Shown here in pieces: positions 88 through 20,821 of a DNA stretch of 38,270 nt. This stretch comes from a virus (taxonomy: Duplodnaviria; Heunggongvirae; Uroviricota; Caudoviricetes): positions 1 through 38,270 of the IMG/VR virus record IMGVR_UViG_2609459790_000001; one strand, written 5' to 3'. Position 1 is the first letter of the stretch. Each line of letters opens with the position of its first letter. The notes under the pieces are model-generated. The model was not told the DNA's origin. It did not search any database and saw nothing but the letters and a program-made list of their open reading frames with translations. The position numbers and the translations under genes were made by a program.

Positions 88-1158
88 TTATTTGATTTCA
101 ATTTTGTCCCACTCCCTGCCTCTGTCATCACGATACTGTGATGCCATGGTGTCCGACTTATGCCCGAGAAGATGTTGAGCAAATTTATCGCTTATCTGCT
201 TCTCATAGAGTCTTGCAGACAAACTGCGCAACTCGTGAAAGGTTGGCGGATCCCCTTCGAAGGAGAGACCTGATGCTTTTCGTGCGCGCATAAAATACCT
301 TGATACTGTGCCGGATGAAAGCGGTTCACGACGAGTAGATGCAATTATGGTTTCTCCGCCAAGAATCTTTTTGCATTTATCAAGTGTTTCCTTCATTGAT
401 ATCCCGAGAGCATCAACATGCAATGTTGTTGGGATGGCAATTTTTACGCCTGTTTTGCTTTGCTCGACATAAAGATATCCATCTACGATATCAGACCACT
501 TCATTTCGCATAAATCACCAACTCGCTGCCCGGTAACAACAGCCAGTTCCATTGCAAGTCTAAGCCAACATGGTGATGATTCTGCTGCTTGATAAATTTT
601 CAGGTATTCGTCAGCCGTAAGTCTTGATCTCCTTACCTCTGATTTTGCAGCGCGAGTGGCTGCGACCGGGTTTGTTGTTATATGGCCTTCAGCTATAGCC
701 TCTCGGAATGCATCGCTCAGTGTTGATCTGATTAACTTGGCTGATGCCGCCTTGCCCTCGTCTATGTATCCATTGAGCATTGCCGCAATTTCTTTTGTGG
801 TGATGTCTTCAAGTGGAGCATCAGGCAGACCCCTCCTTATTGCTTTAATTTTGCTCATGTAATTTATGAGTGTCTTCTGCTTGATTCCTCTGCTGGCCAG
901 GATTTTTTCGTAGCGATCAAGCCATGAATGTAACGTAACGGAATTATCACTGTTGATTCTCGCTGTCAGAGGCTTGTGTTTGTGTCCTGAAAATAACTCA
1001 ATGTTGGCCTGTATAGCTTCAGTGATTGCGATTCGCCTGTCTCGGCCTAATCCAAACTCTTTACCCGTCCTTGGGTCCCTGTAGCAGTAATATCCATTGT
1101 TTCTTATATAAAGGTTAGGGGGTAAATCCCGGCGCTCATGACTTCGCCTTCTTCCCAT
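88..1158 (-). CDS. int: Tyrosine integrase, lambda Int type
   Basis: 356 aa translation matches lambda Int essentially over full length (MGRRRSHERRDLPPNLYIRNNGYYCYRDPRTGKEFGLG ... catalytic region with HELRSLSARLYEKQ and GHKSDTMASQY). Confidence 0.97.
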   Translation of the reverse strand: MGRRRSHERRDLPPNLYIRNNGYYCYRDPRTGKEFGLGRDRRIAITEAIQANIELFSGHKHKPLTARINSDNSVTLHSWLDRYEKILASRGIKQKTLINYMSKIKAIRRGLPDAPLEDITTKEIAAMLNGYIDEGKAASAKLIRSTLSDAFREAIAEGHITTNPVAATRAAKSEVRRSRLTADEYLKIYQAAESSPCWLRLAMELAVVTGQRVGDLCEMKWSDIVDGYLYVEQSKTGVKIAIPTTLHVDALGISMKETLDKCKKILGGETIIASTRREPLSSGTVSRYFMRARKASGLSFEGDPPTFHELRSLSARLYEKQISDKFAQHLLGHKSDTMASQYRDDRGREWDKIEIK

Positions 1159-12091: not shown

Positions 12092-12109
12092 TTGGGGGAG
12101 AGGGAAGTC

Positions 12110-12550
12110 ATGAAAAAACTAACCTTTGAAATTCGATCTCCAGCACATCAGCAAAACGCTATTCACGCAGTACAGCAAATTCTTCCAGACCCAACCAAAC
12201 CAATCGTAGTGATCATTCAGGAGCGCAACCGCAGCTTAGACCAGAATCGGAAGCTTTGGGCTTGCCTTGGTGACGTCTCTCGTCAGGTTGAATGGCATGG
12301 TCGCTGGCTGGATGCAGAAAGCTGGAAGTGTGTGTTTACCGCAGCATTAAAGCAGCAGGACGTTGTTCCTAACCTTGCCGGGAATGGCTTTGTGGTAATA
12401 GGCCAGTCAACCAGCAGGATGCGTGTAAGCGAATTTGCGGAGCTATTAGAGCTTATACAGGCATTCGGTACAGAGCGTGGCGTTAAGTGGTCAGACGAAG
12501 CGCGACTGGCTCTGGAGTGGAAAGCAAGATGGGGAGACAGGGCGGCATGA
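12110..12550 (+). CDS. ninB: NinB (Orf-family recombination mediator)
   Basis: Translation from [31 protein letters not shown] matches lambda NinB nearly throughout. Confidence 0.92.
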
Positions 12551-12729
12551 GACGACAGCGACGAAGTATCACCGACATCATCTGCGAAAACTGCAAATAC
12601 CTTCCAACGAAGCGCTCCAGAAATAAACGCAAGCCAATCCCAAAAGAATCTGACGTAAAAACCTTCAACTACACGGCTCACCTGTGGGATATCCGGTGGC
12701 TTAGAGAACGTGCGAGGAAAACAAGGTGA
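12547..12729 (+). CDS. ninD: NinD-like small zinc-binding protein
   Basis: [32 protein letters not shown]... matches remembered lambda NinD; start overlaps the ninB stop. Confidence 0.85.
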
Positions 12730-12896
12730 TTGACCAAAATCGAAGTTACGAACAAGGAAGTGTCGAGCGAGCTTTAACGTGCGCTAACTGCGGTCAGAAG
12801 CTGCATGTGCTGGAAGTTCACGTGTGTGAGCACTGCTGCGCAGAACTGATGAGCGATCCGAATAGCTCAATGTACGAGGAAGAAGATGATGGCTAA
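12726..12896 (+). CDS. ninE: NinE-like small protein
   Basis: 56 aa ORF from a GTG start ([55 protein letters not shown]) matches remembered lambda nin small protein. Confidence 0.75.
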
Positions 12897-13455
12897 ACCA
12901 GCGCGAAGACGATGTAACCGTAAAAGAGAAGATTTAACTGTTAAAAGGATATTTGAGTTACTAAGTTTCGATAAATCTACCGGGGTATTTAGATGGAAAG
13001 TTCCCACTCAGGGAAGGATAGCATTAAATAGTGTTGCTGGAACTTTTGATTCCAACGGTTATTCAATGATCATGATAGATGGGCGTAGATATAAAACTCA
13101 CGTCTTAGTTTTTTACATAACTCATAATCGTTGGCCTGCTGGTCAAATTGACCACGTTAATGGAATTAGGACCGACAATAGGCCAGAAAATTTAAGAGAA
13201 TGCCTGCCAATAGAAAATTCAAGAAATATAAGGATCCGAAAGAATAGCAAATCAGGTTGCAGAGGAGTTACTTGGCACAAACGACAGAAAAAATGGAATG
13301 TTAGGCTAGGTTTCCATGGCAAGAGTAAACACTTCGGATGCTTTGATGATCTGGAGTTAGCGGTACTAGTTGCTGAAGAAGCCCGAGATAAGTATTACGG
13401 TGATTTTTCCGGCAACGAAAGGAGCACTTATGCGAATCTATCGAAGGAAATGTAA
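12886..13455 (+). CDS. HNH endonuclease with AP2-type domain, inserted between ninE and ninG
   Basis: 189 aa; HNH motif [22 protein letters not shown]; paralogous to the ORFs at 7210..7743 and 23913..24434; its first codons (MAKPARRRC) resemble the lambda NinG N-terminus. Confidence 0.85.
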
Positions 13456-14032
13456 ATGTTGCAATGAATGGTTTATACCAAAATATCAAAATCAATATTG
13501 GTGTAATGAGATTTGTGGAACCAAGATAGCACTCGAACGACGAAGTAAAGAACGCGAAAAAGCGGAAAAAGCAGCAGAGAAGAAACGACGACGAGAGGAG
13601 CAGAAACAGAAAGATAAACTTAAGATTCGAAAACTCGCCTTAAAGCCCCGCAGTTACTGGATTAAACAAGCCCAACAAGCCGTAAACGCCTTCATCAGAG
13701 AAAGAGACCGCGACTTACCATGTATTTCATGCGGAACGATCACGTCTGCTCAGTGGGATGCCGGACATTACCGGACAACTGCTGCGGCACCTCAACTCCG
13801 ATTTGATGAACGCAATATTCACAAGCAATGCGTGGTGTGCAACCAGCACAAAAGCGGAAATCTCGTTCCGTATCGCGTCGAACTGATTAATCGCATCGGG
13901 CAGGAAGCAGTAGACGAAATCGAATCAAACCATAACCGCCATCGCTGGACTGTCGAAGAGTGCAAGGCGATCAAGGCAGAGTACCAACAGAAACTCAAAG
14001 ACCTGCGAAATAGCAGAAGTGAGGCCGCATGA
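13430..14032 (+). CDS. ninG: NinG (Rap recombination-associated structure-specific endonuclease family)
   Basis: From [15 protein letters not shown] with AAAGGAG ribosome-binding site; downstream sequence [73 protein letters not shown] matches lambda NinG. Confidence 0.88.
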
Positions 14033-14235
14033 CGTTCTCAGTAAAAACCATTCCAGACATGCTCGTTGAAGCATACGGAAACCAGACAGAAGTAGCACGC
14101 AGACTGAAATGTAGTCGCGGTACGGTCAGAAAATACGTTGATGATAAAGACGGGAAAATGCACGCCATCGTCAACGACGTTCTCATGGTTCATCGCGGAT
14201 GGAGTGAAAGAGATGCGCTATTACGAAAAAATTGA
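14029..14235 (+). CDS. ninH: NinH
   Basis: 68 aa [39 protein letters not shown]... matches lambda NinH. Confidence 0.85.
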
Positions 14236-17850: not shown

Positions 17851-18144
17851 CCATGTAGGCATTACAAAGCCTATCTACGGGTGGGCTTGATAATGAAACC
17901 GGAATTTATTCTGGGTAACCAGTTACGGCAGTACAGCGAAACAACCCAAGCCAGTAAGTGGGGAAATAACACTGGCAGCCACTGAAAGATGAACCTCCAG
18001 CCTTATGGCAAAAAAGATTCTTTGTGGTGGCGGACTGATGGAAAGACATCGGATAGAATCAAGCAGTGGCTAGGGTAGCTCCCGAAAAGCGGAATCGTCA
18101 CCGCCAGCCACTGAATCTATGACGAACAACTAGACGAGGTTGAT

Positions 18145-18855: not shown

Positions 18856-19344
18856 ATGGCAGCACCAAAGGGCAACCGATTTTGGGAGGCCCGCAGTAGT
18901 CATGGGCGAAACCCTAAATTCGAATCGCCTGAGGCGCTGTGGGCTGCTTGTTGTGAATACTTCGAGTGGGCTGATGATAACCCGCTATGGGAGGGTAAGG
19001 TATTTTCATATCAGGGAGAAATAATTAAGGCTAATGTCCCTAAGATGCGAGCCATGACTATTTCAGGATTGTGTACCTTCCTTGATATCACCAGGCAAAC
19101 ATGGGGAACCTTCCGGTCAATGGAAGGTTTTTCTGACGTCACATCACGAGCGGAAGACATCATCTACGACCAGAAATTCTCTGGCGCAGCCGCTGACCTT
19201 CTCAACGCTAACATCATCGCCCGTGATTTGGGCCTCAAAGAGCAGTCGCAAGTTGAAGACGTGACACCTGATAAGGGAGATCGCGATAAGCGGCGCTCTC
19301 GTATCAAGGAGCTATTCAACCGTGGAACTGGACGCGATTCTTGA
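18856..19344 (+). CDS. 3: Terminase small subunit (P22 gp3-like)
   Basis: 162 aa, same length as P22 gp3, N-terminal [29 protein letters not shown] matches what I recall of P22 gp3; directly upstream of the large subunit. Confidence 0.88.
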
Positions 19345-20821
19345 TAACCTGAGCGACGAAGAGCAAATCGAGTTGCTCGAGCTACTCGAAGAAGAAGAGA
19401 ACTACCGGAACACACACCTGCTATATGAATTTACGCCATACAGCAAACAGCGTGAGTTCATCGATGCCGGGCATGACTATCCAGAGCGCTGTTTTATGGC
19501 TGGTAACCAGCTTGGTAAGTCATTTACTGGGGCTGCTGAAGTCGCGTTTCACCTTACAGGGCGTTATCCGGGCACAAAAGGCTATCCTGCTGATGGTAAA
19601 TATGGCGGTGAGTGGAAAGGTAAGCGTTTCTATGAGCCTGTTGTCTTCTGGATTGGCGGCGAGACAAACGAGACGGTAACCAAAACGACTCAACGCATCC
19701 TGTGCGGTCGTATCGAAGAGAATGACGAGCCAGGCTACGGTTCCATACCGAAAGAAGACATCATTAGCTGGAAGAAGTCTCCTTTCTTTCCGAACCTTGT
19801 TGATCATCTTCTGGTTAAGCATCACACGGCTGATGGCGTTGAAGATGGCATTTCAATCTGCTACTTCAAACCATACTCGCAAGGCCGTGCTCGCTGGCAG
19901 GGTGACACAATCCACGGCGTGTGGTTTGACGAAGAGCCACCATACAGCATTTATGGCGAAGGTCTTACCCGTACCAACAAATACGGGCAATTCTCAATTC
20001 TGACGTTTACCCCGCTGATGGGGATGTCTGACGTTGTTACCAAGTTCCTGAAGAATCCCAGCAAGTCGCAGAAAGTGGTCAACATGACCATCTATGACGC
20101 AGAGCACTACACCGACGAGCAGAAAGAGCAAATCATCGCATCCTATCCCGAGCATGAGAGAGAGGCGCGTGCTCGCGGTATTCCTACGATGGGTAGCGGG
20201 CGAATCTTCCAGATACCGGAAGAGACGATTAAGTGTCAGCCGTTCGAGTGTCCTGATCACTTCTACGTAATTGGCGGGATGGATTTCGGATGGGATCACC
20301 CGCAGGCGCAGGTTCAGCTTTGGTGGGATAAGGACGCAGACACAATCTACGTTTCACGCGTGTGGAAGGCGAAAGAAAAAACAGCCGTTCAGGCATGGGG
20401 AGCTGTTAAATCATGGGCGCATAAAGTGCCAACAGCATGGCCTCATGACGGAAACCAGCACGAGAAGGGCGGCGGTGAGCAGCTCAAAGGGCAGTATGCA
20501 GATGCTGGTTTTATGATGTTGCAGGAGCATGCGACATGGCCTGATGGCGGTAATGCTGTTGAGCCTGGCATCACTGAATTGCGAGACATGATGCTCGATG
20601 GTCGCTTCAAAGTATTCAACACCTGTGAGCCATTCTTTGAGGAGTTCCGCCTCTATCACCGTGATGAAAACGGGAAAATCGTCAAGCTTAACGACGACGT
20701 GCTATCCGCCGTTCGCTATGCATACATGATGCGGCGCTTCGCAAAAATGATGCGCGACATCAAAAAACCAAAAGAGAAAAAGATACCAGCCCCAATCAGG
20801 CCCATCGCACGGAGAACTTAA
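19322..20821 (+). CDS. 2: Terminase large subunit (P22 gp2-like)
   Basis: 499 aa; ATPase and nuclease domains; length and order as P22 gp2. Confidence 0.95.

Follow-up and report, generated by a model that had tools for sequence, protein, structure and literature searches.

The stretch of DNA analysed here, 38,270 nt in length and referred to as the window, was identified as the complete genome of a temperate lambdoid phage or prophage whose late genes are P22-like. Its PHROG matches include an integrase (88-1158, minus strand), an O-like initiator, a DnaB-like helicase, NinI and Q and, on the late side, the large terminase, portal, coat and tailspike. An Rfam scan of the window gave an int-alpA RNA (RF02996) as its sole match, located at 18063-18125 on the plus strand upstream of the small terminase ORF (41.8 bits vs a gathering score of 35.8), and no tRNA genes were found in the window.

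Organization of the nin region

The genes of the nin region follow one another in the order NinB, NinE, NinF, an HNH ORF, NinG, NinH and NinI (Table 1). We used the annotated lambda genome (NC_001416), in which ninG extends from 42429 to 43043, as the reference. Two genes that lambda has between ninB and ninE, namely ninC and ninD, are not present in the window. The initial annotation had listed ninC and ninF as absent; ninC is indeed missing, and ninD with it, but ninF is present and clearly recognizable by its Pfam match. NinB, NinE and NinF are directly joined (window 12092-12896), the ninB stop and the ninE start overlapping in an ATGA at 12547-12550. The ninF stop codon and the nuclease start overlap in just the way that ninF and ninG do in lambda. 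A role of the HNH protein in packaging was considered and rejected, as the terminase genes are located about 6 kb away (18856-20821); we read packaging as putatively of the P22-like headful type.

Table 1. Features of the nin region and of the HNH-ninG' locus (positions in the window).
Feature	Position	Strand	Description
NinB	12110-12550	+	nin region
NinE	12547-12729	+	Pfam NinE match
ninF	12726-12896	+	Pfam NinF 1.7e-12; lambda-like, lambda counterpart at 42269-42439
Captured ninG translation-initiation region	12873-12917	+	GAGGAAGAAG, ATGATGG and codons 1-10; identical to lambda up to 12917
Chimeric HNH endonuclease ORF	12886-13455	+	189 aa; Pfam HNH_3, PHROG 99
Foreign AT-rich block	12918-13513	+	596 bp, GC 0.374; junction mapping and composition profile
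AGGAG Shine-Dalgarno of ninG'	13420-13424	+	within the 3' end of the nuclease ORF; ATG 13430 follows after 5 nt
ninG' (re-started ninG)	13430-14032	+	200 aa; PF05766 2.6e-85; PHROG 171
CGAAGGAAATGTAA (RRKCK)	13442-13455	+	ninG' counterpart of CGAAGACGATGTAA (RRRCK) at 12904-12917
NinH	14029-14235	+	nin region, followed by NinI

An AT-rich block takes the place of 64 bp of ninG

To position the junctions, the window was aligned with lambda. The left junction maps at 12917|12918 and the right junction at 13513|13514. The two sequences keep their collinearity across ninF and do not differ at any base between the ATGATGG start and 12917 (...CGAAGACGATGTAA). The last lambda-identical bases before the left junction end ...GCGCGAAGACGATGTAA; past this point, the window continues CCGTAAAAGAG... 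and lambda continues AAACGATGAATG.... Identity with lambda is back without break from 13514 (TGTGGAACCAAG, encoding CGTKIA...), the sequence at the resumption point being TGTGGAACCAAGATAGC, and the remaining 519 nt of ninG contain 7 mismatches. The block comprised between the two junctions takes the place of 64 bp of lambda ninG (lambda 42461-42524, GC 0.516). The GC content is about 0.49-0.51 in the flanks, 0.389 in the nuclease body and 0.286 in the 5' part of ninG' (the re-started ninG). The block carries a nuclease gene of the HNH_3 + AP2-like type followed by a divergent NinG zinc-ribbon N-terminus preceded by its own AGGAG. The replaced 64 bp and the segment of the block that substitutes for them are about 50% identical at the DNA level. 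No promoter or terminator was found on the plus strand of the block.

The initial annotation had stated that lambda NinG begins MAKPARRRC and had proposed that the HNH ORF carries the first codons of ninG. The annotated translation of lambda ninG (NC_001416) bears out the first statement, and the second follows from the alignment: the ten residues that open lambda NinG also open the HNH ORF, since the window follows lambda ninF-ninG without interruption as far as 12917, a collinearity extending through the start that does not fit a generic basic N-terminus. The captured segment now heads the nuclease ORF and represents the sole left-hand homology common to all contexts of the cassette.

The chimeric HNH nuclease

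The product of the HNH ORF can be divided into three parts: residues 1-10 derive from ninG, residues from about 17 to 178 correspond to the HNH_3 and AP2-like regions, and residues 179-189 form a tail. The nuclease body is encoded by 12918-13429. The tail results from reading, in another frame, over the RBS and start of ninG', and it ends at a TAA present in the Cys8-Lys9 codons.

HNH_3 (PF13392) was detected at residues 69-108 (42.7 bits vs a cut-off of 24.8, E 4.2e-11) and PHROG 99 over residues 4-188 (E 1e-71). The sequence match to AP2 (PF00847) stayed below the cut-off (22.1 bits vs 33.3, 1.8e-4); some relatives of the nuclease carry a precomputed PF00847 match. The AlphaFold model has a mean pLDDT of 81, with values below 50 only at residues 1-12 and 179-189. 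In Foldseek searches, the best PDB match was I-HmuI (1u3e) with a probability of 1.00 and an E value of 6e-3 over 107 columns, at a TM of only 0.36-0.39. The C-terminal half matched plant and apicomplexan AP2 domains, including AtERF1 (1gcc; TMt 0.67, rmsd 1.4 over 51 columns), WRI1 and TEM1, with E values of 0.05-0.2. Based on the model, an HNH nuclease fold is predicted for the product with moderate confidence. When 16 relatives were aligned, residues D89, H90, E101, N102, N111 and N114 fell in columns conserved at 90% or more; the conserved His and Asn residues are those to which we presume catalytic roles in the beta-beta-alpha-metal motif.

The relatives, at most 46% identical, bear homing endonuclease annotations; they come from phages of the T5-like, Jersey-like and other types, and a single genome often has several. 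Homologues of the family align from residues 13-17 onward and stop near residue 178. As the relatives begin to align at residues 13-17 and the head of the model is disordered, the head corresponds to ninG codons 1-10 plus about six residues, and these six are probably the native N-terminus of the nuclease. After the start region derived from ninG, the sequence has no further in-frame start codon until Met61; the nuclease would therefore rely on the RBS and start of ninG itself, coupled to the ninF stop. The ORF was intact in 57 of 58 copies, in which 11 synonymous and 12 non-synonymous variable sites were counted; a rough estimate puts its dN/dS at about 0.3. The start codon is doubled (ATGATGG, 12886-12891) in the window and in lambda, and most copies of the cassette have a single ATG (GACGATGG or GGCGATGG), so that in most genomes the nuclease is probably a protein of 188 aa starting MAKPARRRC.

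The re-started ninG gene

NinG was also proposed in the initial annotation to have here a different N-terminus and its own RBS. This agrees with the position of ATG 13430, five bases after an AGGAG, and with the return of lambda identity only at 13514. The same start is used for ninG of phage AU6Stx1 in RefSeq. The nuclease ORF shares its last 26 nt with ninG', which is read in a different frame.

Codons 1-28 of ninG' (13430-13513) constitute a surrogate AT-rich zinc-ribbon segment, and the gene is of lambda type from 13514. The surrogate codons have their homologues in lambda codons 1-32: they preserve the EWF and NQ.WC motifs and the four cysteines, C8/C11...C25/C29 of ninG' aligning with C10/C15...C29/C33 of lambda NinG, with a deletion of two codons. 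By residue count, the surrogate N-terminus is about 56% identical to that of lambda NinG. At the DNA level, CGAAGGAAATGTAA matches CGAAGACGATGTAA at 11 of 14 positions, and the TAA stop of the nuclease ORF lies within it. The PF05766 match covers residues 4-194 of ninG' (positions 5-192 of the 193 of the model). Because the first 28 codons are homologous and the Pfam NinG match begins at residue 4 and runs to residue 194, the start of ninG' belongs, as judged from the sequence, to a duplicate of the ninG 5' end that has diverged, and it did not require de novo creation. The surrogate codons rejoin lambda-type ninG in frame, and a full-length NinG/Rap should therefore still be made.

The initial annotation described the locus as an insertion that kept the original start for the nuclease and created a new start for ninG. 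This description stands in that the nuclease has taken the RBS region, start and 10 first codons of ninG, and in that ninG re-starts within the 3' end of the nuclease gene. It has to be amended on two points: 596 bp replace 64 bp, and the start of ninG is a homologous, divergent copy. A 9-bp in-frame insertion (GAAAAGGCA) was also observed at window position about 13564, in a Lys/Glu-rich stretch of ninG, in 7 of the 53 nuclease-carrying and 0 of the 81 nuclease-free alleles sampled.

Distribution of the cassette

The cassette is present in 531-537 of 5,426 complete E. coli genomes (531 for the HNH-ninG' arrangement, 537 for the ninG' 5' end), including O157:H7 and O111 lineages, and the uninterrupted lambda-type ninF-ninG junction is present in 926; together with the 56 IMG/VR loci that carry the nuclease at 99% identity or more, these genomes are not independent samples, many being O157 or O111 clones. 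The 14 full-coverage matches listed in E. coli all carry the annotations HNH endonuclease and NinG. The block is 99.5% identical in the Stx1 phages AU6Stx1 and SH2026Stx1, where its genes are annotated "HNH endonuclease" and "NinG". The cluster to which the nuclease protein belongs contains 464 member sequences, with a representative named from Salmonella Infantis. Among phage genomes, the N-terminal 34 aa of ninG' were found at 100% identity only beside the HNH gene, and elsewhere at 60% or less. In essentially all cases, the nuclease and the surrogate N-terminus occur as a pair.

Several collections were searched for a donor. No HNH relative between 46% and 99% identity was found among 5.8 billion proteins. 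No NinG N-terminus closer than 67% was found among 1.84 billion representatives, the best matches being ordinary lambda-type NinG fragments, and none closer than 60% was found in phage genomes away from the HNH gene. A query with the 40-aa NinG N-terminus gave seven candidates, which were only fragments of the same allele. No copy of the cassette was detected in a scan of the GTDB species-representative genomes, which gave only one relative, of 39% identity, in a Planctomycetota MAG. The GC contents of ninG' 5' and of the nuclease (0.286 and 0.389, vs about 0.50 in the flanks) argue that nuclease and surrogate came jointly from a putative AT-rich donor, in which the nuclease gene would have sat directly before the donor's own ninG.

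Related genes were observed at other positions. Contig IMGVR_UViG_3300045988_066558 has a nuclease-free lambda-type ninG and, about 1.5 kb downstream, an HNH_3 relative of 39% identity; the early-right or late regulatory regions of lambdoid phages may have HNH genes of the same family at further sites. In phage DUEC01, a relative of 40% identity (843-1358 of the locus examined) is located between the holin-like and endolysin genes and overlaps both by a few codons. In this virulent phage, the gene appears to have been inserted in a similarly compact, promoter-less manner. A MAKPARRRC-like head that a tblastn search extended to DUEC01 corresponds to a read-through upstream of the annotated GTG start into the holin-like gene, and it was judged to be due to chance.

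Low diversity of the block on diverse backgrounds

The left junction was identical in the 58 copies read (56 of 56 IMG/VR loci, with the same junction in AU6Stx1). Two upstream contexts exist among the 56 IMG/VR loci: either ninF or an unrelated region. In the unrelated, AU6Stx1-type context, homology to the ninF-type starts 13 nt before the ATG, at window position 12873. The backgrounds fall into at least 6 sequence clusters within 700 bp upstream and at least 13 further upstream, and at least 8 ninH variants are found downstream. In AU6Stx1 (L001), a hypothetical gene of 1,773 bp on the minus strand (688-2460) and about seven TTTCTA repeats (2770-2820) lie ahead of the cassette; this type of upstream module was found only in nuclease-carrying phages within the phage collection.

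Firstly, nucleotide diversity (pi) was 0.0040 across the block compared to 0.0375 across the 3' part of ninG, a difference of about tenfold, and it steps from 0.0020 to 0.0418 exactly at 13513/13514. Secondly, polymorphisms common to HNH+ alleles and to HNH- alleles (the 80 closest to lambda) start at 13522, followed by 13546 and 13570. At 13522, 9 bp from the right edge, all four combinations of cassette state and allele are present. On the left flank, three ninF-3' haplotypes are common to HNH+ and HNH-. The 3' parts of ninG in some HNH+ alleles differ by 0-0.8% from HNH- alleles, and HNH+ alleles are several per cent apart from each other. A comparison restricted to the window and AU6Stx1 revealed no sharp identity cliff at the cassette edge, the two being about 98% identical for about 450 bp beyond the block; the valid form of the edge argument is the population-level step in diversity and not this pair. 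One IMG/VR copy (L009) has kept the cassette and diverges fully (about 40% distance) about 170 bp past the right edge, which suggests a rearrangement or an insertion truncating NinG.

Combined, the sequence comparisons indicate a young block of single origin, repeatedly placed on diverse older backgrounds through exchange points that hug its edges, with the reading frame kept. The tenfold lower diversity and the closeness of the exchange points are compatible with, but not decisive for, biased inheritance of the cassette.

A probable homing-endonuclease cassette

We consider it probable that the block is a promoter-less, free-standing HNH (I-HmuI-like + AP2-like) homing-endonuclease cassette with a single recent origin, which would have spread via recombination as in intronless homing. 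The single origin would be an AT-rich donor that already carried the nuclease gene just upstream of its own ninG. Its left end would have been joined illegitimately inside ninG codon 11 and its right end crossed over by homology within ninG. The nuclease, whose body is fused in frame behind codon 10 of ninG, would be translated from the ninG start region and expressed from the early-right operon. Lambda-type ninG alleles devoid of the nuclease would then be cut or nicked by it within or close to the replaced 64 bp. The block would be copied into these alleles during repair templated by a genome that carries the cassette, as in gene conversion initiated by a double-strand break or a nick, with about 45 bp of homology on the left and the ninG body on the right; a homology of about 45 bp is within reach of Red-type recombination. 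The divergent surrogate segment, about 50% identical to the 64 bp that it replaces, would both render the carrier allele immune and keep NinG functional. As free-standing endonucleases often cut hundreds of bp from their own gene (PMC2988022), the target need not be in the replaced 64 bp.

A stronger version of this scenario can be put forward only tentatively. The locus might exemplify a third way for a homing endonuclease to reside inside a protein-coding gene, without intron or intein, by combining a hijacked RBS, start and first codons with a recoded, cleavage-immune 5' copy that has a fresh RBS. Each homing event would insert the nuclease and at the same time rebuild the host gene, the recognition site would lie in the replaced 64 bp, and the cassette would be in active drive through the lambdoid prophages of E. 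coli and Salmonella, including Stx1 phages.

The main alternative is that the block is a passive module of the lambdoid mosaic. It would have entered once, by illegitimate and homologous recombination, and would since then have been shuffled only by general Red/RecA recombination, the nuclease being inert or serving another role such as interference with co-infecting phages. Lambdoid phages recombine freely and their nin regions are highly mosaic, as illustrated here by the missing ninC and ninD and by the many backgrounds on both sides of the cassette; ordinary recombination with hitch-hiking could place a young block on many of them, and the absence of an identity cliff between the window and AU6Stx1 is in line with such a process. 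However, the block occupies about a third of E. coli lambda-type ninG 5' ends (531-537 vs 926 genomes, many clonal) with a diversity tenfold below that of the adjacent DNA, and exchange points come within 9 bp of its edge. Furthermore, the catalytic residues are kept together with the ORF in 57 of the 58 copies, and non-synonymous changes are below the neutral expectation. We regard passive shuffling as a serious contender that is nonetheless rather unlikely.

Much less plausible is a plain insertion behind codon 10 of ninG, followed by the rescue of ninG by a fortuitous ATG and RBS. This would account for the presence of ninG codons 1-10 in the nuclease ORF and for the new RBS and ATG of ninG. 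It does not account for the 64 bp missing from ninG, nor for their replacement by a homologous AT-rich segment (GC 0.286) that encodes the same zinc ribbon (CxxC...CxxxC, EWF, NQ.WC) with its own M..RRKC head and that, in the phage and E. coli searches, was found only beside the nuclease.

An intron, an intein or an IS-like transposable element, which would also explain an interrupted coding region carrying an endonuclease, is scarcely credible: of the 596 bp, 512 are taken up by the nuclease ORF and the other 84 encode the 5' end of ninG', which leaves no space for a ribozyme, and no Rfam family reaches its gathering score in 12800-13600; the different frames and 26-nt overlap of the two genes speak against an intein, as do the domains found, HNH_3 and AP2 with no in-frame Hint domain; and neither terminal inverted repeats, target duplication nor transposase were found, the 11/14 direct repeat being a homologous stretch of ninG codons and not a duplication made by insertion.

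Implications

If the nuclease is active, lambda-type phages, which offer the best genetics available, would gain a simple and testable homing system in which both the empty site (lambda ninG codons 11-32) and the occupied site are defined. The cassette would illustrate how a selfish nuclease gene can settle within a coding sequence without cost to the gene invaded, by means of a substitute 5' end, and some of the mosaicism seen near ninG in prophages, Stx-converting ones among them, may be explained by it. For annotation, the HNH protein starting "MAKPARRRC" should be treated as a chimera, and NinG proteins beginning MRIYRRKC as products of the same event. Hundreds of genomes already carry the gene-by-gene annotation ("HNH endonuclease"); what appears to be undescribed is the start captured from ninG, together with the surrogate N-terminus. 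In the literature outside subscription journals, no description of an HNH gene in ninG or in the nin region was found. No established concept is changed by these results, and the locus is a tidy but fairly ordinary case of a cassette that is common in E. coli prophages.

Comparison with known systems

Homing-endonuclease genes are usually located between genes or inside introns or inteins, and the in-frame capture of the 5' end of a host gene is uncommon. The initial view of the locus as a typical footprint of homing-endonuclease invasion is therefore not retained, even if a precedent for the capture exists in gene 31 of phage epsilon34. The free-standing homing endonucleases of T-even phages were reportedly found by Belle et al. 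in 2002 to spread by intronless homing. Such enzymes include SegF beside gene 56, SegG beside gene 32 and MobE beside nrdB, and the endonuclease cassettes of this kind in T4 are promoter-less (PMC2988022). The present cassette resembles SegF, SegG and MobE as a promoter-less nuclease gene placed in an existing operon beside a conserved gene, with a presence/absence polymorphism among related phages and a carrier allele that differs beside the nuclease gene. As with SegG, signals of the downstream gene are contained within the nuclease ORF: the gene 32 promoters in segG, the RBS and start of ninG' here. In contrast, the Seg and Mob genes lie between genes and have their own start codons, whereas the nuclease described here is fused to the first 10 codons of the host gene and the cassette brings a replacement for the coding segment that it displaces. 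The activity and homing of the Seg and Mob enzymes have been demonstrated, whereas this cassette is known from its sequence and its hosts are temperate lambdoid phages and prophages.

Genes split by an endonuclease provide another point of comparison. They include nrdA of Aeromonas phage Aeh1, with mobE, and T4 gene 60/39, with mobA (PMC2988022); a homing endonuclease is also present in nrdD of FelixO1-like phages (PMC4837284). As in these three cases, the endonuclease gene is within a coding region without intron or intein and the host function is retained, which is a prediction in the case of ninG. In those systems, two polypeptides reassemble; here, NinG would be made as a single chain by means of a duplicated, divergent 5' segment, and only 10 codons of ninG are left upstream, now as part of the nuclease.

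At the level of the protein, I-HmuI (the intron-encoded HNH nicking enzyme of SPO1, PDB 1U3E) is the best structural match, but it is 19% identical in sequence and has a different DNA-binding tail. The HNH-AP2 endonucleases of T5-like and Jersey-like phages (PHROG 99) are closer, at 40-46% identity, and they are devoid of the 16-residue head and of the 11-residue tail seen here.

In epsilon34 gene 31, an eaE-like N-terminus is fused in frame to an HNH homing endonuclease (PMC2629481). Both cases thus involve a lambdoid (P22-like) phage and an HNH homing-type nuclease with the N-terminus of a resident gene. Gene 31 differs in belonging to the early left operon and in using another resident gene; its HNH lineage is related to enzymes of Gram-positive phages and is different from that of the cassette, and no surrogate 5' end restoring the invaded gene was described for it (PMC2629481). 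In conclusion, the closest functional analogues of the cassette are SegF, SegG and MobE of T4, and the closest structural precedent for the capture of a start is epsilon34 gene 31.
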